A DNA stretch of 64,000 bases from an uncultured Candidatus Saccharibacteria bacterium (GTDB taxonomy: Bacteria; Patescibacteriota; Minisyncoccia; Phycocordibacterales; UBA9973). Within the stretch, counting starts at the first letter, position 1. Every line of letters starts with the position of its first letter. The notes below the pieces were generated by a model. It made no database searches. It saw only the letters and a list, made by a program, of their open reading frames with translations, and was not told where the DNA came from. The stretch covers positions 71,905 through 135,904 of the forward strand of contig CAZUQJ010000002.1 in the NCBI GenBank assembly GCA_964622505.1, given 5' to 3'. Of the stretch, positions 3,555 to 33,494 are shown in pieces. A program made the position numbers and the translations under genes.

Positions 3555-5045
3555 TTATTTTAGTTCAGATAGTTGCTCGTAATATTTATCCTTAATTATT
3601 TGCAATTCCCTTTTGAATGCTTCCTGGTTTTTTATTATTGGAAGACCACCAGAACTTTTCTCTGTTAGCAATTTAATTAAATTTTTTTCAGCTAATTCTT
3701 TGTTTGCTTGTATTCCAGTAATTTGTCTAACTATATTTTTATGTTTACCCAATAGGTCTTCTTGTTCAGCAGTGAGGACACTATCTTTATTGTTTAGAGA
3801 AAATTCAACTAATTCAAAAACTTTTCTTATATTTTCGTCTTTAATAATATCTTCTATGTTATTAATTTCACTTGTTTGTAATATAATTTTTTCACTTTCT
3901 TTTAGTAAAAATTCTTCTTTCCCTTGCTTCAACTCCGTGATTTCTTTTTCAAGCTGTTTGATTTCATGTTGTAATTGCTCGTGCAGAATTTCCTCTTCTG
4001 GTGTTAAGCCTGTTTCTTCAACAACCTCTTCTGTTGCCTCAACTTCAGCTAGGGCTTCATCCTCTGCTTTTTCTTCGGGCTCACCTGCAAATTCAAAACT
4101 AATTCCTGGTGCACTTAAAAAATTTTTTGCATTATTAAGACTAATTTTTTGCTCACCTGCACCATCAATAGAAAAAACTATATTTTTACCATCATTTTCC
4201 AAAATAGTATATTTAAAAGTTTTGCCGTTTTCATTTACATTCAAAATCTCTCCTGCTTGTGGTCCACCCATTTCAAAAAGCATGTCCGCATTTATTTTTG
4301 ATCCCCCTACTAACTCTTTTTTATTTTTATTAGAAATTCTATTGATCCTTGCTTCGCTTTTAGCTATTCCTCGATCAAGAACCATTTTAAATTCTGGGTC
4401 TTTGGTTGTGTACCCCCTTTTTTGCAAATCATATATAGTTGCTGTTTTTAACTCCTTTTTTGAGAAAGGTTTAAATTCTTTTACTGGCTCTATAGGCTTT
4501 GGAATAATTTTCTCCATGACTGGTACTATTGTATCATTATTTTCTACAACTTCACTTTCTTTAGCCTCTGGATTTTCTACTACAGGTTCCTCTTGAATCG
4601 GCTCTTCTGTTTTTACTTCATTTACAATGTTTGGGGCCTCTGTTCTCGATACGATATCTACCTTCCTGTCTGACACTTCCTCTTTTACTGTAGGTACAAC
4701 TTCCCCCTTTCTGAGCTCAGCTGTCACCCTTTTTATTATCTCATCTTTAATTTGAGAGTTTTTCTGGAATAGATCTATAGAGTCCTGAGAGTTTGTATCG
4801 AAGGGTACCGAGGCTGGGTCTTGGTATTTAGGGTATTCCATAGCAAATTTATTGAAAAGTTCGTCGTATTTTTTACCGAAGTTATCAGCTTCTGGCCTAT
4901 TTTTGCTACCTTTTATGTTTTTGTTGTCACTTTTTTTAGTTGAAAAATCCTTGTCTAGGCTTTTTTGGAATTTTTTGTTTGCATTGCCAAAATGCTCTAA
5001 TTTACGCATGTACCAATTATGCCATAAGTTCTGGAAATATGTCAA
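3555..5045 (-). CDS. Hypothetical Glu-rich coiled-coil protein
   Basis: 496 aa ORF, first gene of a 3-gene minus-strand run ending at 530; the +strand ORF 3613..4596 is its antisense shadow. Confidence 0.55.
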   Translation of the reverse strand: MTYFQNLWHNWYMRKLEHFGNANKKFQKSLDKDFSTKKSDNKNIKGSKNRPEADNFGKKYDELFNKFAMEYPKYQDPASVPFDTNSQDSIDLFQKNSQIKDEIIKRVTAELRKGEVVPTVKEEVSDRKVDIVSRTEAPNIVNEVKTEEPIQEEPVVENPEAKESEVVENNDTIVPVMEKIIPKPIEPVKEFKPFSKKELKTATIYDLQKRGYTTKDPEFKMVLDRGIAKSEARINRISNKNKKELVGGSKINADMLFEMGGPQAGEILNVNENGKTFKYTILENDGKNIVFSIDGAGEQKISLNNAKNFLSAPGISFEFAGEPEEKAEDEALAEVEATEEVVEETGLTPEEEILHEQLQHEIKQLEKEITELKQGKEEFLLKESEKIILQTSEINNIEDIIKDENIRKVFELVEFSLNNKDSVLTAEQEDLLGKHKNIVRQITGIQANKELAEKNLIKLLTEKSSGGLPIIKNQEAFKRELQIIKDKYYEQLSELK

Positions 5046-5226
5046 TTGGTTACCATTTTAAAGGCTTTTTGGGCGATTCTGTCTGTTTTTGCACCCTTTT
5101 TCCACTTTTTGGTTTGACTTGACCCCCTATTTCGGCTACCCTCTATATATAGGTGTACAGGCCTATAAATCTCGAGACGGAAGCACTTTACTTTACAGAC
5201 AGACGATCAGAATTACCCATTTTACC

Positions 5227-6480
5227 ATGAGTATTCAACACTATAAAAAGAAGCCTACGAGCGAAAATTCTTTGCAAAAAGAAACAGCCGTACCTTCTAA
5301 AATATCTATATTTTACAAGCCTTTTATACTAAAAGGTTTTTCCGTTTTACTCCTACTTGCCCTCATCCTCTTACCTGTTAGCAAGGCAAATGCCGGCTTT
5401 TTCTCCTCTATTGGCCAGTTTTTTGGTATGGGTGCGGAAGCTTCCGAGAATGAGAGTCTCGGTACTAATACCAATTCCCAGACCATGCGCCTAATGGAGC
5501 CAACCCTTACCCCAGAGCTCAAACTTGGTTCTACGGCTCTCGATATGACTATTGTCGACGACCAAGCCTTGGAATCCAACAACATGGGCCCATTGGGAGT
5601 AAGCGATATTGAGCAAAAATACGTTACTACAAAGAAAATTCAAACACATACTGTAGTATCAGGCGATACTCTAGAGAAAATCTCTAAAAAGTTCGGAATT
5701 TCCAAAAATACCCTTATAAATTCAAACGACTCCTTGTCTGCTAAGGGTAGCCTCAAGGTGGGCCAAGTTCTCGCTATCTTGCCTGTGGAGGGTATAGCCT
5801 ATGATGTAAAGAAGGGCGATACGATAGAGAGTTTGGCTCGCAAGTACAATTCATCTGCAAAAGAGATCCTCAAGTATAACAGCTTGGACGATGCATCCGA
5901 CTTGCAAATTGGCGATACTATTGTTCTACCAGGTGGCAAAAAGCTTGTAGCCAAAGTCACAGAGAAGAAAGTCGAGGTCCCAAAGCCTACAAGGCCTACA
6001 CAAATAGAGGAAGATACTCCGCAACAAACGCAACCCACACCATCTGACCCAACACCTACAGAGAAGTCGGATTCAACCCCATCTTCAAACGGATACATCT
6101 GGCCATTCCCTCTAGGTGCAGGAAGTGTATCCCAACGTCTACATGATGACAATGCTATAGACTTGCGAGCACCAAAAGGTACTCCAATATATGCGATCAA
6201 AGACGGAACTGTGCTAATCGCCGACTCCGCGGGCTACAATGGAGGGTACGGACAGTATGTCGTTATTGACTTCGATGCAGGGGGCCAAGCATTGTACGGA
6301 CACATGAGCAAAGTTGCATCTGTCGCTGGTCAGAAAGTTGCCCAAGGTGACTTGATCGGATACGTCGGCTCGACAGGGCTCTCTACTGGCAACCACTTGC
6401 ATATCAGTCTGCGTGACGGGCTCAAGAATCCGTACGCATTCTTGAAGAAAGGAGGCACGAGCGCAGATTTCAATAAATAA
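5227..6480 (+). CDS. LysM (x2) + M23 family metallopeptidase (peptidoglycan endopeptidase)
   Basis: Two LysM repeats (HTVVSGDTLEKISKKFGIS..., YDVKKGDTIESLARKYNSS...) and M23 motifs HDDNAIDL...GYGQYVVIDF...STGLSTGNHLHISL. ORF opens at 5089 but the start is probably ATG 5227 (MSIQHYKK), just before the TM/signal segment. Confidence 0.85.
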   Translation: MSIQHYKKKPTSENSLQKETAVPSKISIFYKPFILKGFSVLLLLALILLPVSKANAGFFSSIGQFFGMGAEASENESLGTNTNSQTMRLMEPTLTPELKLGSTALDMTIVDDQALESNNMGPLGVSDIEQKYVTTKKIQTHTVVSGDTLEKISKKFGISKNTLINSNDSLSAKGSLKVGQVLAILPVEGIAYDVKKGDTIESLARKYNSSAKEILKYNSLDDASDLQIGDTIVLPGGKKLVAKVTEKKVEVPKPTRPTQIEEDTPQQTQPTPSDPTPTEKSDSTPSSNGYIWPFPLGAGSVSQRLHDDNAIDLRAPKGTPIYAIKDGTVLIADSAGYNGGYGQYVVIDFDAGGQALYGHMSKVASVAGQKVAQGDLIGYVGSTGLSTGNHLHISLRDGLKNPYAFLKKGGTSADFNK

Positions 6481-6487
6481 AACGAGT

Positions 6488-6778
6488 ATGAAGTTTTCTA
6501 AAACAATTTTAATTATTACGAGTTTCTTTATAAGCTTTACGCTATTCTTTGGAAGTTTCAGTCCAGTGTTCGCTGCAACCACTACTGTCAAGAAAACAAC
6601 AACAGTAAAAAAGTCTGCGACCAAGAAAGCACCGGCAAAAAAGAAAGTATCAAAAAAGAAAAGTTCTGTAAACCTCAATCCCCCGCGCATAACGCTTGCA
6701 ACCGCTCCGCACTCAGAAAAGAAGTCCAAAGCAAAAAAGAAGACAACAAAAAAGCCGGTAGTAAAAAAGAAAGCATAA
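6488..6778 (+). CDS. Small secreted lysine-rich protein
   Basis: Signal peptide (ILIITSFFISFTLFFGSFSPVFA) then KKTTTVKK/AKKK repeats; followed by a strong hairpin terminator. Confidence 0.4.
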   Translation: MKFSKTILIITSFFISFTLFFGSFSPVFAATTTVKKTTTVKKSATKKAPAKKKVSKKKSSVNLNPPRITLATAPHSEKKSKAKKKTTKKPVVKKKA

Positions 6779-6782
6779 AAAA

Positions 6783-6815
6783 TTCCCCCAGAGCTTGTCG
6801 AAGGGGAATTTTTTA
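6783..6815. terminator. Bidirectional hairpin terminator (ttccccc-agagcttgtcga-aggggaa + T run)
   Basis: Perfect 7-bp stem and T tract between convergent genes; its loop is shared with the hairpin at 62611..62647. Confidence 0.6.
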
Positions 6816-6816
6816 T

Positions 6817-8502
6817 TTAGGCAACTTCTTGTTGGTAGCAACTTTCGCAATAAATAATTTCTTTTCTGTCTGGAGCGTAGCTAGTCTGGAATGTTTCAGC
6901 GCATGTTGTACCTCCGTGATTGATATGCTTTTCAATAGTACACACACATTTACCCGGATACAATTTACGCGGGTTTCTTTTTGCCATTCTGGCTTGATGC
7001 CTACATTCGAAGTCCTTGTGTGGAATTGGTAAATTCATTCGTTTATAGAAATCAAATTCAGCTTTTGTTATTTTGTAATTCTTGCCACACTCATTACAAG
7101 CCAATATTTCTGAAGTAATTGCATCAGTCACAGTTGTAATACTCGAAGGTATTGTATTCTCGGGCATTGTTTCTTTACCAAAGGTGCCCGTGTTCTTTTC
7201 TTGCCAGCGATACCCCCTTTTTAAAGCCTCATTTCTTTCTAAAGGGAAAAAGTCTTGAGCCAGTGTTTCATTGTACCCAAAAGGTGCAATGTCTGTAGGG
7301 AAAAATTGACCATACTCTTTTTCTTTTTTCATTTGGTTTTCGATTTTTTCTTTTATTTTGAAATATTCTTCTTTTGAGTATGGCTTATTAAGGATCATAT
7401 AGTTACCTTTACGCACAGCAATACATCCAAACGCATTAGATAGATGATGACAGCTTTCACAATACTCAACTTCATTGCAATAAAAAACAAATGCTGAATT
7501 TTTTAATTTACTTCCTTCTAGCGCTCCCATTATATTGTATCCAAACTCTGGCTTATAGTAATAGTTGTTGCAGTCCATACTGTCTATAGGATTCTCTGAG
7601 TCTGTCATGTATGAGCAATTTTTAGAATCATATGTATCAAAAAGCATAACTCCCTCGTGACAGTTGTGCAGATAGTCTCCAGTGACATTATGGCATTTTG
7701 TTTGTGAAGTATATTTTCTAATGGCTTGAAGTTTTATCTCCTCAAAATCTTTTTTTGCCTTCTCTATTGTTTTGAAGCTCTCAAGGATTTCTTTTTTCTT
7801 TTTTTCAAATTCTTCTTTTGTGTATTTTACATTTAAAATAGAGTTTGACATGTGTCGGCCGTTTGTACAAAATATGCAATTTGATGAGTCTCGCATATTG
7901 AAACAAAACAGTAGGTCGGTAGAAGATTGGCATTGCTCAGAGTACATGCACTTAAAGCATGAGCGACAGTCCGTACATTCGTAGCAAAGTTCTGACTCAT
8001 GTAGAAATGCACAGTCTACACAAAATTTATCACGTTGCAAGAGTCTCCCGTACATACAGTCTTCGTTATAGTCAGCAGCGAATATTAAATAACAATCTTT
8101 ATTTTCTGCTGAACCGTTTGTGTACTCACTACGTACATTGTTAAAAGCCATTAAGCTTAATCTAGGCACCTCTTGTTGCAAGGCTTTGTACTGTTCAAAA
8201 AAAGATTTAGAAAAATCATAATCCACCCCGTAATCTTTTGGATCCCAGCCATCACCCCACCAGCAGTCATGACAATAGACTTTAAATGGTGATTCAGGTG
8301 TATACACAGTAATCATATCTTTGTTGCACATATCGCAAGGCCTTTTATAGAATGTTCTCTCGTTGCGGAAATTCAGTCGTTTGGCCATTCTGCAATCAGG
8401 GCAGAAAAGCGGGTGTGGGCTCTTCATCTGCTCATAAAAAACTATATCTTCGTCGCGAATTACAAATTCCTTTTCGCATGTCTTGCATAGTTGGTTAATC
8501 AT
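6817..8502 (-). CDS. Cysteine-rich protein with zinc-ribbon modules at both termini (paralog 1 of 3)
   Basis: N-term CKTCEKEF...FYEQMKSPHPLFCPDCRMAKRLNFRNERTFYKRPCDMCNK...YCHDCWW, central CxxC-dense repeats, C-term CNECGKNYKITKAEFDFYKRMNLPIPHKDFECRHQARMAKR...YCESCYQQEVA. Same layout in 29955..31652 and 31713..33494. Confidence 0.7.
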   Translation of the reverse strand: MINQLCKTCEKEFVIRDEDIVFYEQMKSPHPLFCPDCRMAKRLNFRNERTFYKRPCDMCNKDMITVYTPESPFKVYCHDCWWGDGWDPKDYGVDYDFSKSFFEQYKALQQEVPRLSLMAFNNVRSEYTNGSAENKDCYLIFAADYNEDCMYGRLLQRDKFCVDCAFLHESELCYECTDCRSCFKCMYSEQCQSSTDLLFCFNMRDSSNCIFCTNGRHMSNSILNVKYTKEEFEKKKKEILESFKTIEKAKKDFEEIKLQAIRKYTSQTKCHNVTGDYLHNCHEGVMLFDTYDSKNCSYMTDSENPIDSMDCNNYYYKPEFGYNIMGALEGSKLKNSAFVFYCNEVEYCESCHHLSNAFGCIAVRKGNYMILNKPYSKEEYFKIKEKIENQMKKEKEYGQFFPTDIAPFGYNETLAQDFFPLERNEALKRGYRWQEKNTGTFGKETMPENTIPSSITTVTDAITSEILACNECGKNYKITKAEFDFYKRMNLPIPHKDFECRHQARMAKRNPRKLYPGKCVCTIEKHINHGGTTCAETFQTSYAPDRKEIIYCESCYQQEVA

Positions 8503-8524
8503 AGATATTTTTAATATAGCATAA

Positions 8525-10117
8525 TTATTGATTAGTGCGAGGGCGGTATTGGAGGGCTTCTAGGATGTGGGGAATTTGGATGTGCTCGCTACTCTCTAGA
8601 TCGGCGATGGTGCGGGCGAGTTTGATGGTGCGGTGGTATGCGCGAGCAGAGAGTTGGAGATGCTCGGCACTCTGATTCAATATTTTCTTGACCTCGTCTG
8701 CGAGTGGTGCAAAAGTATTTAAATCTTTTGAATTCATATCGCTATTTGTTTTGATTTTTCTTGTAGCTTTTTTGAATCTTTTTTCTTGTATACTTCGTGC
8801 ATTTTTCACTCGACTCTTTATTATATTTGTCGGAGTGCTATTGAGATCTTTGCCCGAGAGTTCGTCGTAGCCGACGTTGCTGACGGTGACCCACATATCA
8901 ATACGGTCCATGATTGGCCCCGAAAGCTTGCGATTGTAGCGGTCCAGATCGGTTGGCTTACAAATGCACGCTTTCTGTTTGTTGCCTTTGTGTCCGCAAG
9001 GGCATGGGTTCATTGCAGCAATCAAAATAAAGTTGGAGGGGAATGTCGCTGAGCCTTTTGCACGCGAAATGGAGACGATGTTGTCTTCGAGTGGCTGGCG
9101 CAAAGATTCCAAAACACGTTTTTCAAATTCTGGAAATTCGTCCAGAAATAGGACGCCTTTGTGTGCGAGCGTCACTTCGCCAGGGCGTATATTTGCCCCA
9201 CCACCAATCATAGCGACATAGCTTGCAGTATGGTGTGGTGCACGAAATGGCGCATCGGTAATCAACTTGCCTTCAAGCATGCCAACGATAGAATGTATGC
9301 CAGTGATTTCTAAAATATCTTCGTTGTCGAGATCTGGAAGTATGTACGAAAATGCACGTGCAAGCATTGTCTTGCCAGTTCCTGGAGGACCCGATAGTGC
9401 AATGTTGTGTCCACCAGCGGCAGCGATTTCCAATCCCCTTTTGGCATTCTCTTGACCCTTCACATCTTGGAAATCGGTCCTATTTTCAACTACCGATTTT
9501 TCTATTATAGTTTTTGGGAATTTGGTAAGCTTTGGTTTCTCTTTCTCAAGCGGATTGCCTTTTTTGTCGTATCTAATTTTGTAAATATGATTGATCACTT
9601 CAATCAGAGTCTTTGCGCCATAAATGTCTATTCCATCTACAAGCCCCGCTTCTTCGGCATTGTCATAAGGCAAGAAAATTTCTTTGTAGCCCAAGCGTTT
9701 AGCCTCTTGTGTTAGTGGCAGAGCACCTTTTATAGGGCGGAGTTCCCCATTGAGTGACAACTCCCCGAGGAATACTCTACTTTCTGGGTCGAAATATGTT
9801 TGATTTGCAGAGAGCAAGTATGAGAGTGCTATACCTAGGTCGAAATACGACCCTTCTTTTTTCAAGTCAGCTGGCGAGAGTGATATGACCACCTTTTGAT
9901 TTTGGCTTTTTGGAGATTCGTAGCCAGAATTTTTGAGCGCAGAGCTCATGCGGTCTTTTGCTTCATCGACAGCTTTGTCGGGTAGCCCTACCATAGTAAA
10001 AGCGTGGAGAGTATTTGGAGTAATATCAACTTCTATCGTAACAATCTTGCCTTTTAGCATGTATGGTTGCGCCGCGTAGACTCTTGAGAATGACATAATA
10101 AATAGTATAGCAAACAA
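8525..10117 (-). CDS. comM: YifB/ComM family Mg-chelatase-like AAA+ ATPase
   Basis: Lon-like N-domain, Walker A LSGPPGTGKTMLARA, MNPCPCG zinc motif, C-terminal Mg-chelatase domain. Start may be the internal Met MSFSRVYAAQPYML. Confidence 0.9.
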   Translation of the reverse strand: MFAILFIMSFSRVYAAQPYMLKGKIVTIEVDITPNTLHAFTMVGLPDKAVDEAKDRMSSALKNSGYESPKSQNQKVVISLSPADLKKEGSYFDLGIALSYLLSANQTYFDPESRVFLGELSLNGELRPIKGALPLTQEAKRLGYKEIFLPYDNAEEAGLVDGIDIYGAKTLIEVINHIYKIRYDKKGNPLEKEKPKLTKFPKTIIEKSVVENRTDFQDVKGQENAKRGLEIAAAGGHNIALSGPPGTGKTMLARAFSYILPDLDNEDILEITGIHSIVGMLEGKLITDAPFRAPHHTASYVAMIGGGANIRPGEVTLAHKGVLFLDEFPEFEKRVLESLRQPLEDNIVSISRAKGSATFPSNFILIAAMNPCPCGHKGNKQKACICKPTDLDRYNRKLSGPIMDRIDMWVTVSNVGYDELSGKDLNSTPTNIIKSRVKNARSIQEKRFKKATRKIKTNSDMNSKDLNTFAPLADEVKKILNQSAEHLQLSARAYHRTIKLARTIADLESSEHIQIPHILEALQYRPRTNQ

Positions 10118-10123
10118 AATAGA

Positions 10124-10281
10124 AAAAATCCCCGAGAATAGTCCTTGAGAAATGACTTGCGCAGAAGCTTAGAAAATAAAGTATGTACTCAGGCTATTAT
10201 TTTCTTGAGCGACGAGCAGAGCAATTTTTCACCAGAAAAATATGTCGTGCATTTTGAGAGGAGCTATTCTCGGGGATTTTT
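10124..10281. repeat. 18-bp perfect inverted repeat (aaaaatccccgagaatag / ctattctcggggattttt) bracketing 122 bp
   Basis: Left arm 10124-10141, right arm 10264-10281, exact reverse complements; lies between the comM start and the dksA-like stop. Confidence 0.7.
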
Positions 10282-10287
10282 TAGTGG

Positions 10288-10638
10288 TTATACTAGATTC
10301 ATGCAGATCATGCACTTGCGGGCGCTTGGATTTACATCCAATCTTTCTTCTTCGATAGCGTCACCACATGTTTCGCACTTTCCAAATTTATTTTCTTCAA
10401 TTCTTTTGATCGCGTCCTCTATGTCTCGCATTCTTCGGCCAAGCGTGTCTGTTATGGCGCTACGTTCTTCGAAATCCTCGGTACGGCTTGCCATGTCGTT
10501 TTCATCTGCTTCGGGAGCAGTTTGACTCTCTGGGACTGCATGCCAGACACCAGTTACATCGTCGCGTTTTGCAATCGAAGATAATTCAATTTCTAAATTT
10601 TTCTTTTCTTCCGCTAATTTATTTTTGTGTTTGATCAT
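10288..10638 (-). CDS. DksA/TraR family C4 zinc-finger transcription factor
   Basis: C-terminal GKCETCGDAIEEERLDVNPSARKCMICMN (CxxC-N17-CxxC) after an acidic coiled-coil region. Confidence 0.75.
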   Translation of the reverse strand: MIKHKNKLAEEKKNLEIELSSIAKRDDVTGVWHAVPESQTAPEADENDMASRTEDFEERSAITDTLGRRMRDIEDAIKRIEENKFGKCETCGDAIEEERLDVNPSARKCMICMNLV

Positions 10639-10674
10639 ATGTGAATAATATATAATTTTTAATTAAAGTGCAAT

Positions 10675-11559
10675 CTACAAAGGCTTGGCGTTTTGAGTGC
10701 GTAGTCTCTTGATCGCCTCCACGATTACCTCTTTGTTGTCGGAGATCATGTATAGGTTTTGATTTATAAATACAGAGTAGATCAAAGGCTCGTTGTCGGT
10801 GCCAGTCAGCACCCGTGCGTCGGTATTGTTGATAACAGTATCTTCAAATGATTTTTGCAGAAGGACTTTTTTGTTCCCACTGATATTGATACCAAAGATT
10901 GTAGAGAATTCATCGAGGATTGTTTTCTCCCAAGCATATGACCCTGCCACAGCTTGGTCGTATGATGGTGATTTGAAGATAAAGAAAGTGCCTGTCTTGG
11001 CTTCTGCGTTTTGGCGGTACAAGCCGATCATAAAATTTGAATCCAATGACCTTTTAAATGAGCTCGGTATACTACTACCAACTGTCTCTAGGAAGTCTGT
11101 AGCACTGAGAGTTTTTTGTCCACCGATAGTAAAGACCACAGATTCGACAAGACCATTTTTATTTTTTGCGCGCTCCTCTCCCAGCACTCTTACTAAGTCC
11201 TCTCGGCCGGCAATAGTATCAGCCGGCAGAAGTGTCTGTGTGTCGCTTGGGATCAGCGTGGGAATTCCGGTTACTATTTCTGGATGAGTTGCTTCTATCT
11301 TGCCTTTCTTGTTGAGGTACTTGAATACAAATATTGCGCCTACAATAAGTATGATCGAGCAGATACCAAATACCAAAGCATAATTCTTTTGTTTTGTTGC
11401 TGTCTGCTTTTGAACTTCCCCTTCGCGACGACGTTGCTCGGCCATAGCGATCTTGATCACCGAGGCTTCGTTGTCGCGCACCATACTTGCCATATCGCCT
11501 GCATAGGTGTGTATGGTTTGTGACTTTTTATTTAGATTGATGTTATTTTGTTCGTCCAT
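10675..11559 (-). CDS. Hypothetical single-pass membrane protein
   Basis: TM helix YALVFGICSIILIVGAIFVF after a ~60 aa N-terminal segment; overlaps the pnp stop by 17 nt, implying co-transcription. Confidence 0.55.
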   Translation of the reverse strand: MDEQNNINLNKKSQTIHTYAGDMASMVRDNEASVIKIAMAEQRRREGEVQKQTATKQKNYALVFGICSIILIVGAIFVFKYLNKKGKIEATHPEIVTGIPTLIPSDTQTLLPADTIAGREDLVRVLGEERAKNKNGLVESVVFTIGGQKTLSATDFLETVGSSIPSSFKRSLDSNFMIGLYRQNAEAKTGTFFIFKSPSYDQAVAGSYAWEKTILDEFSTIFGINISGNKKVLLQKSFEDTVINNTDARVLTGTDNEPLIYSVFINQNLYMISDNKEVIVEAIKRLRTQNAKPL

Positions 11560-13672
11560 TAAAGAAATCCTTGTCAGCTTCTTTTATAGAAAGACTGATT
11601 TTACCTTTCTCGTCTACCTTTAGAACTTTGATCGGGACTATCTCCCCTTCCTTAAGAATATCAGAAATCTTCTCTACACGGAATGGGGCCATTTCGGAAA
11701 CGTGCACGAGACCCTCTGTATTACTATTGTTGATCTTTACAAAAGCGCCGAAGTCGACGATCTTGATCACTTCACCTTTAAACATATCACCTGCCTTGTA
11801 TTCGTATGTCATCTCGGCAATCATTTTGTGTGCCTTTTCTGCACCACCGTCTCGGCCTGTGATAAACACTGTGCCGTCTTCTTCGATTGTGATCTCGGTA
11901 CCAGTTGCTTCACGGATTGCATTGATGTTCTTGCCGCCTGGGCCTATAACCATACCGATCTGATCTTTCTTTATAAGGATGGTCATGATCTTTGGTGCGC
12001 GTGCCGAGATATCGGCACGTGGTTGCGCGATCACCCCGATGATTGCTTCGAGGATTTGCAAGCGCGCGTTCTTTGCTTTCACTAGCGCATCTTTGAGTAC
12101 CGGTAGTGGTACACCATCTACTTTAATATCGAGCTGGATTGCAGTGATACCATTTTTTGTCCCGGCAACTTTGAAGTCCATGTCACCATAGTGATCTTCT
12201 GGTCCTTGGATGTCAGTAATGAGTTTGTATTTTGTACTATCATTCTCGTCGATCATTGCACCGATCGAGATTCCGGCAACAGGACTTGTGATCGGCACAC
12301 CGCCATCCATAAGTGCTATTGTCATCGCACAGATACTTGCTTGCGAAGTGGAACCATTGGAAGCGGTGGATTCAGATACAACACGGATTGTGTAAGGGAA
12401 ATTTGTCTTGCTTGGCAGTACTGGAATCATTGCTTTTTCTGCGAGGAATCCATGACCCATTTCGCGACGGTTGATTCCGCCGACGCGACCAGTTTCACCA
12501 GCAGAGTATGGAGGGAAATTGTAATGATGCATAAATCTTTTCTTGAAACTATTCTCGATACCATCGATAGTGTGCATGCTTTCAGGGCCTCCAAGGGTTA
12601 GTACACTCATGACGTGCGTCTCGCCACGGTAAAATATTCCTGAGCCGTGTAACACATCCGAGATACCACCAGCTACTCCTGATAGGGCTCGAACTTCGTC
12701 GAGTCCACGCATGTCTGGGCGCATGTCGTTTTGTAATGCTTTGTCGTGGAGGGCTTTGTCGATATATGTTTCCAAGTAATCTTCGGCGATAAATTTCATC
12801 GCTTGGTCGTCTTCATATTTTTCTTCAACAAACTTTTTCCATTCGTGCTCGGCTTCGTGGATTGTCTTCTTACTTTCAGTTTTGCTAAACAATCCTTTGT
12901 CGAGGATTGGTACGATCAAACCGTTGAACAATTTAACAATTTCTTCTGTAGTCTCGGCTGTTGGGAATACCAATTTTTCTTTACCAAGTTCTGTGCGGAG
13001 CATCTTTTGGAAATTTTCCCACTTTGTGATCTCGGCTATAGCTAGGTCAAAGGCAGTGCCCATAGTTGGCTCATCGAGCTCAAAGGCCATCGCCTCGATC
13101 ATGTTGATAGTGTTGTCCTTTCCGCACACCATCAAGTCGAGTGCGTATACTGGCTCATCAGTTTGAGGGATATAGTTGTTTGCAACGATTGTTGGATTTT
13201 CTTTTGTACTACTTATATGTACGGCACCGATTGGACCTGCCCATGGGATGTCCGACATATGGAGTGCCACTGATGCCGCATTGATGCCGAGGGTCTTTGG
13301 ATCTGCTTCGCCTACTGCGATAACAGTTATGATTACTTGGACCGCATTCTTTATTCGGTGATCGAATAGCGGGCGGATAGTACGGTCGATCACACGTGCC
13401 GCAAGAATTGCTTGGTCGCTAGGTCGTCCTTCACGGCGCATAAATTGGCTTCCTAGGATCTTGCCAGCTGCATAAAACTTTTCTAAATATTCTACAGTAA
13501 GGTTGAAAAATCCAGGATTGGATTTGCCATCACGACTGATACAGGCTGTAGCCATAACTACAGTCCCCCCACTCTTTAGTATGACCGAGCCATTTGCTTG
13601 GTCTGCTAGGTCTGTAAACATAGCGACAATCTTCTTGCCACCAATCTCTACCTCAAATTCTTTTGTATTCAT
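11543..13672 (-). CDS. pnp: Polyribonucleotide nucleotidyltransferase (PNPase)
   Basis: Two RNase PH domains, KH domain (IIGPGGKNINAI) and C-terminal S1 domain; 709 aa. Confidence 0.95.
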   Translation of the reverse strand: MNTKEFEVEIGGKKIVAMFTDLADQANGSVILKSGGTVVMATACISRDGKSNPGFFNLTVEYLEKFYAAGKILGSQFMRREGRPSDQAILAARVIDRTIRPLFDHRIKNAVQVIITVIAVGEADPKTLGINAASVALHMSDIPWAGPIGAVHISSTKENPTIVANNYIPQTDEPVYALDLMVCGKDNTINMIEAMAFELDEPTMGTAFDLAIAEITKWENFQKMLRTELGKEKLVFPTAETTEEIVKLFNGLIVPILDKGLFSKTESKKTIHEAEHEWKKFVEEKYEDDQAMKFIAEDYLETYIDKALHDKALQNDMRPDMRGLDEVRALSGVAGGISDVLHGSGIFYRGETHVMSVLTLGGPESMHTIDGIENSFKKRFMHHYNFPPYSAGETGRVGGINRREMGHGFLAEKAMIPVLPSKTNFPYTIRVVSESTASNGSTSQASICAMTIALMDGGVPITSPVAGISIGAMIDENDSTKYKLITDIQGPEDHYGDMDFKVAGTKNGITAIQLDIKVDGVPLPVLKDALVKAKNARLQILEAIIGVIAQPRADISARAPKIMTILIKKDQIGMVIGPGGKNINAIREATGTEITIEEDGTVFITGRDGGAEKAHKMIAEMTYEYKAGDMFKGEVIKIVDFGAFVKINNSNTEGLVHVSEMAPFRVEKISDILKEGEIVPIKVLKVDEKGKISLSIKEADKDFFNGRTK

Positions 13673-13861
13673 ATTATGTGGGCTAATCTACAGACTCTAG
13701 TTTTGAAGCGGCAAGTAGGCCACTCAACTCTATTTGTCTGGAGATTAACGGTTACCTTTTAATAGACTCTTTATAGCACAAAAGCAGGTTTTTATAAATA
13801 GACAAAAGAAAAGCCCCAACCTAAGTCAGAGCGATTCAAAAATTTAGTACGGTGCTTAACT

Positions 13862-14149
13862 CTATGAAAAGAAGTCATCAGCGCGGCCAAAAGCTTTATA
13901 AAAACTAAAGGCTCCAAAGATTGGACAAAGAAACATCATCAAAATCAGATGAAAAATTCTTTCCCACTCTGGCAACGAACTGGCTGACACTTGTACCTTT
14001 TGTGAAAGATACGTAATACATAGATAGAACAATAAACCGCCGATAGCTATGAACACTAAACGCATCACGCCTATCATCAGAAAGCTGAATACAAGTGATA
14101 CATTAAAGAAGAAATCGGAAAGGTGTTGGCGACAAGTTTTTGTTTTCAT
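13862..14149 (-). CDS. Small hypothetical membrane protein
   Basis: 95 aa, two predicted TM helices; consensus promoter immediately upstream. Confidence 0.4.
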   Translation of the reverse strand: MKTKTCRQHLSDFFFNVSLVFSFLMIGVMRLVFIAIGGLLFYLCITYLSQKVQVSASSLPEWERIFHLILMMFLCPIFGAFSFYKAFGRADDFFS

Positions 14150-14178
14150 TTTTTTGCTATTAAGTTATATTTGTGTAT

Positions 14179-14208
14179 ATTATAGCACAAATACACCCTA
14201 TTTGTCAA
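14179..14208 (-). promoter_or_regulatory. Consensus sigma70 promoter (TTGACA-N18-TATAAT) reading leftwards
   Basis: Minus-strand TTGACA at 14208-14203 and TATAAT at 14184-14179; this is copy 1 of the duplicated cassette. Confidence 0.6.
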
Positions 14209-14210
14209 GT

Positions 14211-14240
14211 AAAAACCCCTTGTAAAATAAGGGTTTTTAA
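14211..14240. terminator. Hairpin terminator aaaacccctt-gtaaaat-aagggttttt
   Basis: GC stem with T/A runs on both sides, downstream of 14307..14861 (-); same element repeated at 14924..14952. Confidence 0.5.
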
Positions 14241-14306
14241 CGCGATCGGCAAAAGAAAAACCCACCGTGCTAAGATGGGTGTTCCATTAGTGGTGGGTTT
14301 TAAGAT

Positions 14307-14861
14307 TTAAGCTTGTTGTTCCTTGATTGAATTTGACCAATCTTTACGATAAATCAAACGAACTAAAGTGCCTACAACAGTTGAAATACTCGCGGTTCCT
14401 AAAATTACAAAGTAAGCTGCTTGAGGTGCAAAAAATAAAATAGTTGCTCCGGCTACTGTAAGATTGGCTGCAATACTGTATCTCGGATGTACAATTGCAA
14501 AGATCAAGCTTAGTGCAAAAAATGAATAAGCAGTGACATCAGCATTAACCATTCCGGAAAATTTGCAAAATAGCGCACTGGCAAGAAGTCCAATTAAGAT
14601 TCCGATAGGATATAACCCTCTGGCTACGTCGTCTCGGTCTGTTAATTTGAACCATTTCAATTCGCGAAGCATTACGATTCCAAAGAAGCTGATGGTTACC
14701 ACCAGTAGAAACTTGGGCAGGATCTCAGTAATTTCTTTCCAGGATACCATGTTTACCATTCGTCCAATTAGGACAGAAATTAAACAGGTTAAAAATAGGG
14801 TTAGAACATAGATCTTTGTGTACAGCTGTACAGTTGCGATGTTGTTTTTAGAGATTTTCAT
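14307..14861 (-). CDS. Hypothetical polytopic membrane protein
   Basis: ORF opens at 14969 but the likely start is ATG 14861 (MKISKNN...), downstream of the promoter at 14892-14921; 4-5 TM helices. Confidence 0.5.
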   Translation of the reverse strand: MKISKNNIATVQLYTKIYVLTLFLTCLISVLIGRMVNMVSWKEITEILPKFLLVVTISFFGIVMLRELKWFKLTDRDDVARGLYPIGILIGLLASALFCKFSGMVNADVTAYSFFALSLIFAIVHPRYSIAANLTVAGATILFFAPQAAYFVILGTASISTVVGTLVRLIYRKDWSNSIKEQQA

Positions 14862-14891
14862 GTTGTTTTTATTAAGTTTTCGATTTTGTAT

Positions 14892-14921
14892 ATTATAGCA
14901 CAAATACACTCTATTTGTCAA
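14892..14921 (-). promoter_or_regulatory. Consensus sigma70 promoter (TTGACA-N18-TATAAT), copy 2 of duplicated cassette
   Basis: Minus-strand TTGACA 14921-14916 and TATAAT 14897-14892; ~55 bp near-identical to 14176-14240. Confidence 0.6.
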
Positions 14922-14969
14922 GTAAAAACCCCTTGTAAAATAAGGAGTTTTTTGGAGGAGGGCTCTCAT

Positions 14970-16016
14970 TTATTTAGATAACTGCTCTTTGAAGTAGTTG
15001 ACCCACTTGATGTCGCTTGGGTCTTTTTCGTGGATGATACCTAGGGTATAGGCTAGATACATTGCCCTTTGCATGCCTATTAGGATCTGAGATAGTTTGC
15101 TCTCGCCTTGCATATCCACAGTTGTGTACTTTATCCCCTGTTTACTCAAGACATCTTTTGTCACTGCAATTCTTTTGTTTATTTTTTCAGAATATAAATT
15201 AGACTCGAAAAACATAAAATAAACTTTCTCTTTATTTGTATCTGGGAATTCCAAACCCTCCATCAAGTGGTGATTGAGCTCTGGGATCTCGTGCGTGAGC
15301 GCCAATGTCTTGGCAGTCTCGTGGATTTGGTTGCGAGTAAACCGGCCAAGGTTGGTGAGGTGTTCGCTGTACACTAGTACTGGCATTTTGTCTGCGATAT
15401 TTTGCGCATCCGTATACACTTCATCGATTTTGTTTTCGGTTTTAAAAGTTTCTTGCCAAGATGCCAACTCTACTAAAGCTTTTTCTACTTCTTCATTCGT
15501 AAGATTGCACACTTTGTAATCTGTACATATCTTTATCATCTCCATCATCATAAATCCTACGCCGAATCGTGGCTGGTTGCATGGGTTATATCCAGTATTT
15601 ATCTTTCTGATTTCTAAATTATTTTTAACTGCGATATTTTCTAGTTCGCCACCCACAGTGATGCAGGCTACTTGCGCGCCCTTTTCAATTGCGTGTGTTG
15701 TTGCAGAGAGTGTCTCTTCTGTACCACCCGAGTAACTGATTGCAAGCACTAGTGTGTCTTCACCAACCCATGCTGGTATATTGTAATCGTGGCTCATAGT
15801 GATAGGCACAGTGAAAATATTTAAAGATTGTAGTATGTATGCACCGAGCGCCGATCCACCCATACCAGCTACCAAAATATTTGTAACTTCTTTTCGTTCT
15901 CTGTCCTCACTTCCGCTCTCCCATGTTGCCTTGCATTGTTTAGGAAACAATTCTACAGACCCAAAAACATTTTTTGTATCGAATTTTTCTATCCCATTTT
16001 GAAATTTTGTATTCAT
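14970..16016 (-). CDS. SIS-domain bifunctional phosphoglucose/phosphomannose isomerase family protein
   Basis: SIS nucleotide-sugar motif ILVAGMGGSALGAYIL and second SIS-like half; 348 aa fits the PGI/PMI family. Confidence 0.6.
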   Translation of the reverse strand: MNTKFQNGIEKFDTKNVFGSVELFPKQCKATWESGSEDRERKEVTNILVAGMGGSALGAYILQSLNIFTVPITMSHDYNIPAWVGEDTLVLAISYSGGTEETLSATTHAIEKGAQVACITVGGELENIAVKNNLEIRKINTGYNPCNQPRFGVGFMMMEMIKICTDYKVCNLTNEEVEKALVELASWQETFKTENKIDEVYTDAQNIADKMPVLVYSEHLTNLGRFTRNQIHETAKTLALTHEIPELNHHLMEGLEFPDTNKEKVYFMFFESNLYSEKINKRIAVTKDVLSKQGIKYTTVDMQGESKLSQILIGMQRAMYLAYTLGIIHEKDPSDIKWVNYFKEQLSK

Positions 16017-16077
16017 TCTTGTATGTTAGCATTTTTTAAGATTTTTGAAAAAAGGTAAAAAAATGTATAATCTATAT

Positions 16078-17913: not shown

Positions 17914-17924
17914 ATCATGCATTA

Positions 17925-17960
17925 AAAAATCCCAAACTGAAAAGTTCGGGATTTTTTTAA
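17925..17960. terminator. Bidirectional hairpin terminator aatcccaaa-ctgaaaag-ttcgggatt
   Basis: Stem with one mismatch flanked by A run and T run, between convergent glmS and 17976..19373; loop is the reverse complement of the loop at 51441..51470. Confidence 0.55.
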
Positions 17961-17975
17961 GTTAAGATGTTCGGA

Positions 17976-19373: not shown

Positions 19374-19412
19374 AAAATTCTAATCCGATGTCGAAGAACA
19401 GCTATCAGCGGT

Positions 19413-19441
19413 ATGATAGCATGTTTTACCCTATTTGTCAA
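19413..19441 (-). promoter_or_regulatory. Sigma70-type promoter TTGACA-N17-TATCAT sharing the cTTGACAAATAGGGT motif
   Basis: Minus-strand TTGACAAATAGGGT... matches the -35 region of the 14179 and 14892 promoters. Confidence 0.5.
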
Positions 19442-24329: not shown

Positions 24330-24332
24330 TTT

Positions 24333-29954: not shown

Positions 29955-31652
29955 ATGGAAACAAAGAACTGCCAGAATTGTAAAAAGGATTTCGTCATCG
30001 ACGAACGAGATGCGCTTTATTACAAGAAGATAAATGTCCCCCACCCTACTTGGTGCCCTGGGTGCCGGTTTGTCCGTAGGGAAGCAAAGATAAATGGCTT
30101 TACTGTTTTTTATCGTAATTGCGATCTGTGTGGCAAGCGTACCCTCTCAGCTTATCCACCATCACAGAAAATTACCGTATATTGCCAGCCGTGTTGGTGG
30201 GGTGACACTTGGGACGGCACAGAGTTTGCAATGGATTATGACTCAAGTCGTAATTTTCTCGAACAAGTAAAAGAACTCAGTGACAAAACTCCTTTTTGCG
30301 CACTCGAGACAACATATCTAACTCTCAAAGATTGTGAGTATTGCAATGCAATTGCTTATAGCAAAAATTGTATTCTGGCTAGCTGGTCCGATTATTGTGA
30401 AAATGTTTGCTACTCGGGATTTAATAATGGCGTCAAAGATACCTCCGACTGCTTGCGCATGCAGGATTCTGAGCTGTGTTATGAATCTATCGGGCAAAAT
30501 AAATCCTATCGCACTTTATATTCCGAAGAATGTGATTCCTGTACTGATGTAATGTTCTCTCGCAATTGCTATAGCTCGACAAATTGTATTGGTTGTGTAA
30601 ATTTACGCGGGGCGACATATATGATTTTCAATGTGAAATATTCAAAGGAAGAATATGCCGAGAAAGTAAAAGAGATGAAGCTTGATACTCGATCGGGGAT
30701 CAAAAAAGCAAAAGAAGAATCCGAGAAATTCTGGAAAACATTCCCCTACCGCGCATATAGTGGCAATACTTTCAACCTCAATACTACAGGCGAATATGTG
30801 TATGGTTCCAAAAATTCTAAAGAAATGTATATTTCAAACGGCGCCGAGGATTGCCGGAACTGCCAATTTGTCACAGTAGCGCCGGCGCGCGATTGTATGG
30901 ATTATTCAGGCTGGGGCAACAATGCGCAACTAATTTATGAATCGGCAAATATTGGTGACAATGTGAGTAATGTAAAATTTTCTTGTTACTGCTTTCCTGA
31001 TGTATTAAACACTGAATATAGTATGTGGGTGATTGCGGGTAAAAATAATTTCGGCTGCGTGAATCTCAAGCGCAAGCAATACGCGATACTTAACAAAGTT
31101 TACGATCAAAGTACTTACGAGAAATTGAAGGAGCAAATAATAGAGAGTATGAAAAACGATCCTTATATAGATAAACTGGGCAGAGTGTATACTTATGGTG
31201 AATTTTTTCCACCAGAATTTGGTAAGTTCCCGTACAACGCATCGAATGTAAGCAAATTTATCCCAAAGACAAAAGAGCAAGCCGAGAGTGAGGGATATTT
31301 CTGGCACGAAGAGCCCGAGACTGTTGTCGAATCTACAATTGATGGCAACAATTTACCCGAGACATTGGCTGAAAGTGGGGATGCAATTTTAAACGAAGTT
31401 ATAGCTTGTACAACTTGCCCAAAGAAATACAAAATAATTCAACTCGAATATAGCATCTTGCAAAGATTAAACATTCCAATCCCAGACCAATGCTCAAAAT
31501 GCCGAGAAAAAAATCGCTTTGCAAAAATTAACCCACCTATATTCTACGAGCGTAATTGCGCGAAATGCAATGAAATTGTCACCACCGCCTATACTCCCGA
31601 AAGACCCGAAGTAATCTATTGCGAAAAATGCTACCAAGGAGAATTTGTTTAA
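29955..31652 (+). CDS. Cysteine-rich protein with terminal zinc-ribbon modules (paralog 2 of 3)
   Basis: N-term CQNCKKDF...YYKKINVPHPTWCPGCRFVRR...CDLCGK...YCQPCWW, C-term CTTCPKKYKIIQLEYSILQRLNIPIPDQCSKCREKNR...CAKCNE...YCEKCYQGEFV; collinear with 6817..8502. Confidence 0.7.
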   Translation: METKNCQNCKKDFVIDERDALYYKKINVPHPTWCPGCRFVRREAKINGFTVFYRNCDLCGKRTLSAYPPSQKITVYCQPCWWGDTWDGTEFAMDYDSSRNFLEQVKELSDKTPFCALETTYLTLKDCEYCNAIAYSKNCILASWSDYCENVCYSGFNNGVKDTSDCLRMQDSELCYESIGQNKSYRTLYSEECDSCTDVMFSRNCYSSTNCIGCVNLRGATYMIFNVKYSKEEYAEKVKEMKLDTRSGIKKAKEESEKFWKTFPYRAYSGNTFNLNTTGEYVYGSKNSKEMYISNGAEDCRNCQFVTVAPARDCMDYSGWGNNAQLIYESANIGDNVSNVKFSCYCFPDVLNTEYSMWVIAGKNNFGCVNLKRKQYAILNKVYDQSTYEKLKEQIIESMKNDPYIDKLGRVYTYGEFFPPEFGKFPYNASNVSKFIPKTKEQAESEGYFWHEEPETVVESTIDGNNLPETLAESGDAILNEVIACTTCPKKYKIIQLEYSILQRLNIPIPDQCSKCREKNRFAKINPPIFYERNCAKCNEIVTTAYTPERPEVIYCEKCYQGEFV

Positions 31653-31712: not shown

Positions 31713-33494
31713 ATGGAAAATAAAACATGTCAGAATTGTAAACAAAACTTTAATATAGAGGTTGATGATGTGTCTTTTTATACACGGATGAATGTGCCCT
31801 ATCCTACCTTTTGCCCTATGTGTCGTGCGCAGCGACGTTTGGCTTTCCGCAATGAGCGTGGACTATATAAGCGCAAGAGTGATTATAGTGGTAAAGAAAT
31901 TTTCTCTATGTATTCCAATGAATCACCAGTCAAAGTTTACGAGCGTGATGTGTGGCTATCGGATGTGTGGGACCCGACAGAGTACGGGCGCGACATTGAC
32001 TGGTCCAGACCGTTTCTCTCCCAACTTTATGAGCTTATGCTTGAGGTGCCATTCAAGGCCAACAATCTTGTCCATGGAGTTGATAGTGAATACTCCAACA
32101 ATGCCACAGACCCAAAGAATTGCTATCTCGTATTCAATGCCACCAATCCCGAAGACTGCATGTACTCCAATGGCGTCAATTTCTCTCGCGATTGTGTAGA
32201 TTGCTCACATATTTCAAAAACAGAATCAAGCTACGGTAGCTTTTGGCTAGGTTCCTGTTACCGCACTCATTACTCATCTCAATGTGTAGATTCGAGTGAT
32301 TTGTATTTTTGTCGAGATTGCCAAGGATGCCTCAATTGTTTCGGCTCAGTAAATTTGCGTAACAAGAGCTACTGCTTCTTCAACGAGCAGATGACAAAAG
32401 AGGAATATAATAAAAGAGTTGAGGAGTATAAATTACACACTCACGAGGGTGTCGAGAGGGCGACAAAAGATAGCAAAGAATTTTGGAATAAATTCCCAAA
32501 CAAAAATCACCAAGGGATAAAAAATTATTTTTGTGATGGATCGTATGTTAGCAATTCCAAAAATGTCCATGGATCATTCCTAGTTCGTGAATCCGAAAAT
32601 ATAAAATATAGTCAGTATTTACAAGAGACTCCAGGATGTAAAGATTGCTACGACTATAGTATTTGGGGTGATGGCGCCGAGCTTGTGTACGAGGCTGTGT
32701 CTTGTGGAAGCGGTATACAAAATGTAAAGTTCGCATTACTTACACAGGAGAATGTACACGATACAGAATATACTATCAATTGTACAAACGGATCACAAAA
32801 TTTATTTGGCTGTGTGGGCTTGCGCAAATATGAATACTGCATACTCAATAAACAATATACAAAAGAGGAATATGAAATTTTGGTAGATAAAATAAAAAAG
32901 CACATGGAAGAAATGCCATATGTAGATAAAGAGGGCCGCGTATATAAATACGGCGAATATTATCCTATCGAGATGAGTCCGTGGGCTTACAACGAAACTC
33001 TAGCTCACGAATACTTCCCTCTAAAGAAGGATCAGGCTCTAGAACAAGGATACCGTTGGCGTGATCAAGATGCAAAAGCGTACGTACCAACAATGTTAGT
33101 GGAGAATATTCCGGCAGATATTCATGAAGTACCAGAAACGATAACTTCCGAGATTATAGAATGTGCACACAAGAGCGCTTGCAATCATAATTGCACAAAA
33201 GCATTCAGGGTTACCATAGACGAGCTTTCGTTTTATCGAAAAGTTGGGATACCACTGCCCACTCTGTGCCCTGCCTGCCGTACCATGGAGCGACTCAATT
33301 TCCGACTGCCGATCAAATTGTATGACCGTACTTGTATGTGTGCTGGCGCTAGTGATATCACTGGCCAATACCAAAATGTAGGAACTCATGCTCATGCCGG
33401 ATCACTTTGTGAGGAAACATTCAAAACAGGCTTTTCCCCAGATGGAGATGCGATAGTCTATTGCGAGAAATGCTACCAGCAAGAAGTGATTTAA
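31713..33494 (+). CDS. Cysteine-rich protein with terminal zinc-ribbon modules (paralog 3 of 3; second N-terminal Zn site degenerate)
   Basis: ORF opens at 31668 but start set at ATG 31713 (MENKTCQNCKQNF...) by analogy with the paralogs; N-terminus keeps CxxC...FCPMCR but has replaced the next four Cys (KRKSDYSGK...YERDVW); C-terminus ends YCEKCYQQEVI. Confidence 0.7.
   Translation: MENKTCQNCKQNFNIEVDDVSFYTRMNVPYPTFCPMCRAQRRLAFRNERGLYKRKSDYSGKEIFSMYSNESPVKVYERDVWLSDVWDPTEYGRDIDWSRPFLSQLYELMLEVPFKANNLVHGVDSEYSNNATDPKNCYLVFNATNPEDCMYSNGVNFSRDCVDCSHISKTESSYGSFWLGSCYRTHYSSQCVDSSDLYFCRDCQGCLNCFGSVNLRNKSYCFFNEQMTKEEYNKRVEEYKLHTHEGVERATKDSKEFWNKFPNKNHQGIKNYFCDGSYVSNSKNVHGSFLVRESENIKYSQYLQETPGCKDCYDYSIWGDGAELVYEAVSCGSGIQNVKFALLTQENVHDTEYTINCTNGSQNLFGCVGLRKYEYCILNKQYTKEEYEILVDKIKKHMEEMPYVDKEGRVYKYGEYYPIEMSPWAYNETLAHEYFPLKKDQALEQGYRWRDQDAKAYVPTMLVENIPADIHEVPETITSEIIECAHKSACNHNCTKAFRVTIDELSFYRKVGIPLPTLCPACRTMERLNFRLPIKLYDRTCMCAGASDITGQYQNVGTHAHAGSLCEETFKTGFSPDGDAIVYCEKCYQQEVI

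Follow-up and report, generated by a model that had tools for sequence, protein, structure and literature searches.

P1 (paralog 1) is a cysteine-rich gene found on the minus strand, at positions 6817..8502, of a 64,000-nucleotide stretch of DNA from an uncultured Candidatus Saccharibacteria bacterium (contig CAZUQJ010000002.1 of GenBank assembly GCA_964622505.1); the whole stretch is referred to here as the window. We have found that P1 represents an ancient orthologue line, passed on vertically, within a very large family of proteins of the Paceibacteria (Patescibacteria), and that its product is built of zinc-finger pairs capping a predicted, duplicated solenoid, an arrangement that we tentatively read as that of an adaptor. 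Its position directly behind comM, from which a preliminary description had argued for a nucleic-acid-related role, is evidently the accidental scar of a deletion, and as such uninformative on function.

The P1 reading frame runs from an ATG at 8500-8502 to a stop codon at 6817-6819 and encodes 561 amino acids, 37 of which (6.6%) are cysteine. The protein aligns end to end, at 35-38% identity, with the products of a tandem pair on the plus strand, paralog 2 (P2, 565 amino acids, 29955..31652) and paralog 3 (P3, 593 amino acids, 31713..33494, counted from the ATG matching the start of the other family members; its open reading frame (ORF) opens 15 codons upstream, at 31668), and no copy beyond these three was detected in the window by tblastn. 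The suggestion of the preliminary description that P1 is a third paralog was thus borne out. When P1 was compared with its ortholog of 91% identity, a nonsynonymous divergence (dN) of 0.05 was obtained with synonymous divergence (dS) saturated, and dN/dS was about 0.02; P1 is therefore a real coding gene under strong purifying selection.

The family to which P1 belongs is among the larger uncharacterised families of the Paceibacteria. A homolog search gave 3269 matches, all of them named "hypothetical" and all from Patescibacteria, Paceibacterota, Nomurabacteria and related groups, and in a library clustered at 50% identity 4765 clusters were matched at E<=1e-3 and 2072, that is more than 2000, at E<=1e-30, their members being nearly all 545-610 amino acids long and matching end to end. 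The family occurs in more than 572 stretches of GTDB species genomes. As many as 8-9 full-length family genes are arrayed on one strand within 17-22 kb (loci L051, L068, L063, L067), one 77-kb contig holds about 12 copies, and in relatives such tandem arrays occupy roughly half of some stretches of 20-45 kb. In one locus (L162, 2476-13092) five successive family genes overlap one another by 4 nt at start and stop, and the row overlaps an upstream CYTH-domain gene and a downstream M23 peptidase gene by 4 nt as well, which suggests that the translation of these genes is coupled, within a cluster of cell-wall genes (MurG, Mur ligase). No whole-protein model for the family was matched in Pfam or NCBIfam, and our literature search found no paper on it. 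The proteins are probably cytoplasmic because they have no signal-peptide-like N-terminus, and on the same ground a secreted protein was rejected. Membership of an anti-phage defence system or a phage family was also considered and dropped, as PADLOC and PHROG gave only marginal matches (NsnC, 0.0016; phrog_15341, 0.009). No family copies were found in the phage and plasmid collections, and IMG/VR held one fragment.

Paralogs within a genome are evidently ancient and not recent duplicates. The best same-genome paralog has a median identity of 42.6% (maximum 63%), compared with 59% for the best match in another genome, and for 91% of the genes the closer relative is found in the other genome. 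Recent tandem duplication, or arms-race turnover, was rejected in view of this low identity between paralogs of the same genome.

P1 is a tandem internal duplication, with its parts in the order A-B-B'-A'. In profile comparisons (hhalign) the N-terminal part A (residues 1-81) matched the C-terminal part A' (residues 464-556) with a probability of 99.4% and an E-value of 1.2e-21, and the two central halves, B1 and B2 (residues 128-239 against 275-387), matched each other with a probability of 99.9% and an E-value of 1.7e-35. Part A opens with a treble-clef finger (residues 5-42; 8377..8490, minus strand) followed by an Arg-rich helix. Its cysteines 6, 9, 34 and 37 form the two CxxC knuckles of the zf_Tbcl type and are 100% conserved among 123 diverse members, and the conserved stretch behind it reads CRxxRRxxxRNER. 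The zf_Tbcl model (PF13451) scored 22.2 bits on residues 5-42 against a gathering cut-off of 24 (E 1.4e-4); 17 of 18 family N-termini matched it at E<=1 (best 3.9e-5), and 11 of 44 full-length members did so at E<=0.01. The second finger (residues 49-81; 8260..8358, minus strand) has the spacing C56-x2-C59-x17-C77-x2-C80, or CxxC-x17-CxxC, which P2 repeats at its C-terminus. On the corresponding models (TIGR04272 and PF23477, zf_Tbcl_2) P1 reached 14.6 bits against a cut-off of 27 and the paralogs 10-16 bits against a cut-off of 36, while relatives reached E-values of 1.3e-5 to 4e-6. P1 thus stays below both curated cut-offs.

The four cysteines of the second finger are intact in 62 of the 123 members and are otherwise lost together (phi 0.97-1.0 for Cys 59, 77 and 80); P3, like half of the family, has none of them, carrying S, S/G, E and V instead. 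Because they are kept or lost as a unit, these cysteines appear to behave as a true metal tetrad, and the prediction that the finger binds zinc is supported, all the more as small proteins of Methanosarcina mazei with the same CxxC-x17-CxxC arrangement were shown to bind zinc by inductively coupled plasma mass spectrometry (PMC12704099). The C-terminal pair A' (residues 464-561; 6820..7113, minus strand) is the duplicate of the N-terminal one. Over both ends, cysteines 6, 9, 34, 37, 469, 472, 497, 500, 519, 521, 534, 552 and 555 are 97-100% conserved among the 123 members, P1 itself being an exception at residue 497, where it has Asp in place of a cysteine found in 98% of the family. The ends of P1 resemble the small zf_Tbcl and CxxC-x17-CxxC proteins (PF13451, PF23477, TIGR04272) down to the exact 17 residues between C59 and C77, but whereas in those proteins the finger makes up a small protein or an appended tail, in P1 two pairs cap a duplicated solenoid in a chain of 560 amino acids.

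For the centre of the protein we relied on an AlphaFold2 (AF2) model. An initial model from 14 close sequences had a mean predicted local distance difference test score (pLDDT) of 49.7 and was discarded; the final input was a 141-sequence alignment built via a profile of 44 divergent paralogs, and the resulting model of P1 had a pLDDT of 89.3 and a predicted TM-score (pTM) of 0.89. In this model the centre forms a solenoid whose strands are very short and whose DSSP assignment repeats every 12 residues, and the whole chain is predicted to form one compact rigid body. Solenoid B1 (residues 128-228; 7819..8121, minus strand) is made up of about 8 coils, each 12 residues long, and has a ladder of cysteines at repeat position 3; when the sequence was stacked in 12-mers from residue 135 a cysteine fell at that position in six of eight rows. 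A helical hairpin (residues 229-262; 7717..7818, minus strand) leads to solenoid B2 (residues 263-376; 7375..7716, minus strand), the internal duplicate of B1, after which a helix and a conserved aromatic-rich linker with the motif YGxFFP..PFxYNET..FPL..GYxW (residues 377-463; 7114..7374, minus strand) connect to A'.

No significant fold match was found: Foldseek searches of the PDB and of viral models gave none at E<=0.001, the viral matches covering only a small zinc-ribbon module, and PDB searches with sequence profiles returned no match better than E 0.4. The only PDB folds retrieved by Foldseek for the centre were left-handed beta-helices (GlmU, LpxD, gamma-carbonic anhydrase), which likewise combine a solenoid made up of very short strands with a helix after it. 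These matches were non-significant (E of at least 0.02, probability of at most 0.11, TM of at most 0.1; the best, at E 0.023, had a probability of 0.08 and a TM of 0.07), and the repeat differs, being 12 residues with every third one buried in P1 and 6/18 in the left-handed beta-helix. Membership of the hexapeptide transferases was rejected, there being neither a Hexapep match in Pfam nor a significant fold match. As an analogy for the P1 solenoid we take the beetle antifreeze protein TmAFP, which was not retrieved by any search. TmAFP completes a coil every 12 residues, with cysteine recurring at one place in the repeat, and so forms a very narrow solenoid; it is secreted and disulfide-bonded. 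Unlike it, the P1 family has no signal-peptide-like N-terminus and its cysteines are interchangeable with Ser, Leu or Val; homology between the two was neither detected nor expected, and the likeness is one of analogy only. We found no solved analogue of finger pairs capping a duplicated 12-residue cysteine-ladder solenoid, and we rate the family as known finger modules joined to an undescribed solenoid. The preliminary description had called P1 a "Cys-rich zinc-ribbon" protein, a label which fits both ends and does not fit the cysteine-rich centre.

The two kinds of module differ in how they are conserved. Among P1 orthologs conservation is highest in the solenoids B1 and B2 (85% and 76%) and lowest at the finger ends (65-70%), whereas between paralogs the solenoids are the least conserved (34% and 29%) and the ends stand at 45-47%. 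We read this as generic ends combined with stable, line-specific recognition faces, a pattern which argues against arms-race turnover.

Other paralogs of the family provide a lead to a possible partner. The neighbours of family genes were mapped in 80 loci fetched from GTDB species genomes, and adjacency was tested by shuffling gene order within loci; the loci of the nearest relatives of P1 (L166-L169) were inspected individually. The commonest neighbour of a family gene was another family gene. Non-family neighbours above chance were the CCA-adding enzyme (convergent), GrpE, a TMEM175-like channel, a PaaX-like gene and a TraD/VirD4/TrwB-like ATPase, the last being a direct neighbour in 13 cases where 6.4 were expected (p about 0.002 by the shuffles). 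The signals of the first four reflect the shared synteny of related genomes. The ATPase occurs in several distinct layouts, mostly with a short and a long form bracketing an array (L042, L063, L076, L164), and cassettes in which family genes stand between two ATPase genes on the same strand were seen in L042, L063, L076, L087, L091, L098 and L164. The short form has about 490 amino acids and the long form 650-1030, with a disordered tail that carries a CxxC-x17-CxxC finger of the kind found in P1. The ATPase matches phrog_5156, of unknown function, at E 5.5e-57. Unlike the TraD/VirD4/TrwB coupling ATPases, which it otherwise recalls, it has no N-terminal membrane anchor as judged by eye in two sequences, both of which begin almost at the Walker A region with no hydrophobic stretch. 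In a reciprocal check 11 of 80 ATPase-centred metagenome loci carried family genes; all but one of these (L155) lie among the 36 closest ATPase homologs, and three (L087, L091, L098) have bracketed arrays. ATPase bracketing is the best lead to the function of the family, although it does not reach P1, and the link may be restricted to the other paralogs.

Taken with the architecture, these observations lead us to favour, with appreciable reserve, a P1 that is a rigid adaptor or specificity subunit and not an enzyme, its finger ends docking while the solenoid faces recognise targets specific to the line. The zinc-finger ends, being conserved, would do the job common to all paralogs, namely docking on a polyanion or on a partner common to them, the likeliest candidates being nucleic acid and the finger-bearing tail of the array-bracketing TraD/VirD4-like ATPases. 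The solenoid faces would give each paralog a fixed target of its own, since they are conserved within an orthologue line and differ between paralogs. A nucleic-acid role for P1 is possible, the ground for it being the Arg-rich helices behind the zinc knuckles and not the neighbouring genes. The division into generic ends and orthologue-specific faces also yields concrete constructs and partners, the TraD-like ATPases and a TrmB-family regulator described below.

Several points weigh against an adaptor of this kind. P1 is mildly acidic overall, with an isoelectric point (pI) of 6.1, only A' being basic (pI 8.6), and the conserved KD..D and ELCYE motifs, or else the aromatic linker, may have a catalytic role. 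The geometry of the solenoid is drawn from the DSSP string and from sequence periodicity, and for no family member was an annotated homolog, a solved structure or any experimental datum found. With regard to the ATPases, GrpE and the CCA-adding enzyme score above them as neighbours, and as kin genomes share synteny the adjacency statistics overstate independence. Furthermore, a tblastn search with 23 of the ATPases detected no TraD/VirD4-like gene in the window, and in the loci examined P1-type orthologs (at least 50% identity) do not lie beside the ATPase and pair with TrmB instead.

An extension of the adaptor model, which we regard as unlikely in its full form, would make the family and its two bracketing ATPases an undescribed machine specific to the Paceibacteria. 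In such a machine hexameric translocases would be steered by ten or more ancient solenoid adaptors, each reading a different macromolecule by its solenoid face and docking via the shared CxxC-x17-CxxC finger, and P1 would be a member that turned stand-alone and came under the control of TrmB. Slightly less likely again is that the family forms the cargo of the coupling ATPases, a repertoire of effectors or DNA-pilot proteins exported to host cells by a type IV-like route. The same-strand bracketing of the arrays in several genomic contexts, the finger module shared with the ATPase and the size of the repertoire, which recalls type IV effector sets, would all agree with such a role. However, the ATPase N-termini have no hydrophobic stretch in the two sequences inspected, and no VirB4/VirB6-type or other type IV gene was named in Pfam and NCBIfam scans of 13 recurrent neighbour clusters or in the Pfam labels of six further loci, most of the other genes being unscanned. 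The paralogs are moreover ancient, slowly evolving and orthologous across genomes, unlike effectors of fast turnover; a protein that is compact and carries several zinc sites would be ill suited to export in the unfolded state, and no copies were found on plasmids or phages.

It is improbable, more so than export, that the family consists of proteostasis or redox and metal stress proteins, either holdase-like or buffering thiols and zinc, that are co-regulated with the DnaK system. This explanation draws on a recurrent block in relatives (L037-L062 block, L095, L103, L164) in which family genes lie within grpE-dnaK-dnaJ, many relatives having them in both the grpE-dnaK and the dnaK-dnaJ interval. 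The order of the block is GrpE, one to three family genes, a PaaX-like gene on the opposite strand and DnaK, and, at some distance after DnaK, the long ATPase, one or two family genes, a helix-turn-helix (HTH) gene, a gene of 325 amino acids, the short ATPase and DnaJ. The proteins are also 5.6-6.6% cysteine, and chaperones with zinc centres such as DnaJ and Hsp33 offer a precedent. Nonetheless, the grpE/dnaK layout is a single syntenic block common to related genomes, L104 has GrpE and PaaX without a family gene, and P1-type genes lie outside the block. Conservation of the solenoid faces by orthologue line also suits specific recognition better than bulk buffering.

The central cysteines call for separate comment, since runs such as C173-x2-C-x2-C-x2-C-x2-C185 in P1, and C203-x2-C206-x2-C209-x2-C212 in the family consensus, resemble cluster-binding motifs. 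That the centre holds iron-sulfur (Fe-S) or multi-zinc sites serving redox or electron transfer, or forms a long zinc-ribbon array, is nonetheless quite improbable, because ligands of such a centre would be lost as sets. Among the 123 members the central cysteines are swapped singly for Ser, Leu, Val or Thr with no covariation of tetrads, whereas those of the finger at 56/59/77/80 are kept or lost as a unit. P1 itself, atypically, has no cysteine at the family positions 194, 203, 206 and 369, in addition to 497. For cysteines and core-type residues, autocorrelation is seen at all multiples of 3 and peaks locally at 12, and the cysteines thus follow the register of the repeat. Since they are replaced one at a time and not set-wise, these data fit cysteines that form an interior packing ladder and do not serve as metal ligands.

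The genomic position of P1 was the basis on which the preliminary description had linked it to ComM and DksA. Its factual statements all hold: P1 is the last gene of a same-strand run (minus strand) composed of polynucleotide phosphorylase (PNPase; 11543..13672), a putative transmembrane (TM) protein (10675..11559; no Pfam match, with a single hydrophobic stretch judged by eye), a DksA/TraR finger protein (10288..10638; Pfam 7e-8) and ComM/YifB (8525..10117; Pfam Mg_chelatase at 3e-90, ChlI and Mg_chelatase_C), the comM stop codon at 8525-8527 leaving a gap of 22 bp (8503..8524) to the start of P1. The run is tight throughout, save where dksA and comM stand about 170-190 bp apart. The PNPase, identified by Pfam, the DksA/TraR-like protein and ComM show nothing unusual for their families, and the pnp-TM-dksA-comM cassette (10288..13672 plus comM) recurs as a block in relatives, also in the absence of a P1-type gene; the cysteine-rich gene is not a conserved part of this rpsO-pnp/dksA/comM housekeeping neighbourhood.

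Related genomes arrange the same region differently. In L166, whose P1 ortholog has 90% amino acid identity, the gene order is PNP, TM, DksA, ComM(+), HAD hydrolase(+), TrmB(-), P1(+). The orthologs of 80% and 76% identity (L167 and L168) show ComM(+), TrmB(-), a small ORF in some cases, and P1(+), and that of 75% (L169) shows TrmB(-) followed by P1(+) without comM. Two same-strand genes separate comM from the P1 ortholog in L013, and a PaaX-like gene together with an opposite-strand TrmB gene does so in L015 and L021. In L004, L023, L026 and L028 the pnp..comM block is found 3.5-5 kb away on the other strand. No comM was present within 10 kb of the P1 ortholog in L002, L006, L011, L012 and L027, or within 6-10 kb when L169 is counted with them. 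Among the fetched loci only L003 has its ortholog (73% identity) directly after comM, at a distance of 39 bp, so that direct adjacency was seen in that locus and the window only. Expressed over the fetched GTDB loci with a complete comM, comM is immediately upstream of the family gene in one of about seven, the window being a further case, and none of the some 180 other family genes seen adjoins comM.

Comparison of the window with L166 by blastn suggests how the adjacency arose. L166 is collinear with window positions 12727..6094 at 76-78% nucleotide identity, and a 1.4-kb segment of it (4177-5587), comprising the HAD gene, the TrmB gene and an intergenic region with a promoter, has no counterpart in the window. 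As the TrmB-P1 pair is widespread, it is evidently the window lineage that recently lost the 1.4 kb, and with it the -35 region and the genes for the HAD hydrolase and TrmB. The deletion fused P1 to the end of the pnp-TM-dksA-comM run, and the ComM link is therefore accidental, the 22-bp junction being the scar. This case is a warning against reading function from the gene order of one compact genome. That P1 is a functional member of the operon, acting with ComM and perhaps DksA in a nucleic-acid transaction such as competence or recombination, is accordingly very improbable, for although the short gap on one strand, a terminator-like hairpin found only after P1, the repeated adjacency in L003 and Arg-rich fingers compatible with nucleic-acid binding would agree with it, the opposite-strand TrmB gene intervenes in the orthologs of 90%, 80% and 76%, the L166 promoter lies there, and elsewhere the cassette is on the other strand, absent, or conserved without P1. 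Synteny in relatives, which the preliminary description had itself proposed as the check on its argument, was not conserved, same-strand adjacency to comM not being kept, and by that criterion the step from association to function is refuted.

In about 16 of 37 loci with upstream sequence, as tallied from gene maps, the P1-type ortholog is preceded by a divergent TrmB-family gene (among them L166, at 4643-5431, L167, L168, L169, L007, L009, L015 and L028). A TrmB-family protein may be a regulator of P1; no TrmB homolog was found in the window by tblastn. In L166 a near-consensus promoter, TTGACA-N17-TGCTATAAT (written out, TTGACA-N17-TGcTATAAT), stands 15 nt before the start of the P1 ortholog, and -10-like boxes were seen 6-15 nt before the ATG in many other P1 orthologs. 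P1 would thus ancestrally have been an independent transcription unit with its own promoter, usually divergent to the TrmB gene, and probably under TrmB control. In the window an extended -10-like element, TGCTATATT (8513..8521, minus strand), which corresponds to the TGCTATAAT of the L166 promoter, is retained 10 nt before the ATG. What was the -35 position now falls within the coding sequence of comM, and a consensus promoter scan called no full promoter before P1. P1 may still fire from the extended -10 element, and read-through from comM is also possible in the window because P1 abuts comM and a terminator scan showed no terminator-like site between them. The co-transcription proposed in the preliminary description may therefore apply to the window as it stands, but P1 was ancestrally separate, with a promoter of its own in L166.

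Positions of the paralogs are reshuffled between lineages, since a slot that in many relatives holds a P1-type gene (XerC-like integrase, ExoIII-like nuclease, further genes, CCA-adding enzyme) holds the tandem pair P2/P3 in the window (28142-37693); P1 there adjoins an M23/LysM peptidase gene. Beyond the P1 stop codon a terminator-like hairpin followed by a T-run was seen (6785..6804, minus strand), which by its A-run and T-run flanks looks bidirectional and would serve also the convergent ORF at 6488-6778. This ORF (plus strand, 96 amino acids, no Pfam match) has a hydrophobic N-terminus and a Lys/Thr-rich low-complexity tail, and L166-L168 hold ORFs of 90-130 amino acids at the same place. 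A 126-amino-acid ORF antisense to the dksA-like gene (10145-10525, plus strand) exceeds the real gene in length and is a trap for gene calling.

In most relatives the NYN-domain and S15 genes directly follow pnp; in the window (24333-25274) they are parted from it by about 10.6 kb (13673-24332), which contain GlmS (16045-17913) and some nine further genes. Rfam and tRNA scans gave no match near the P1 locus. Elsewhere in the window the CCA-adding enzyme gene is flanked by four tRNA genes (Arg, Gly, Pro and Gly; 37688-39592), and an RNase P RNA was located at 43158-43491 on the plus strand (114.6 bits), beneath a spurious minus-strand ORF call at 43092-43436.

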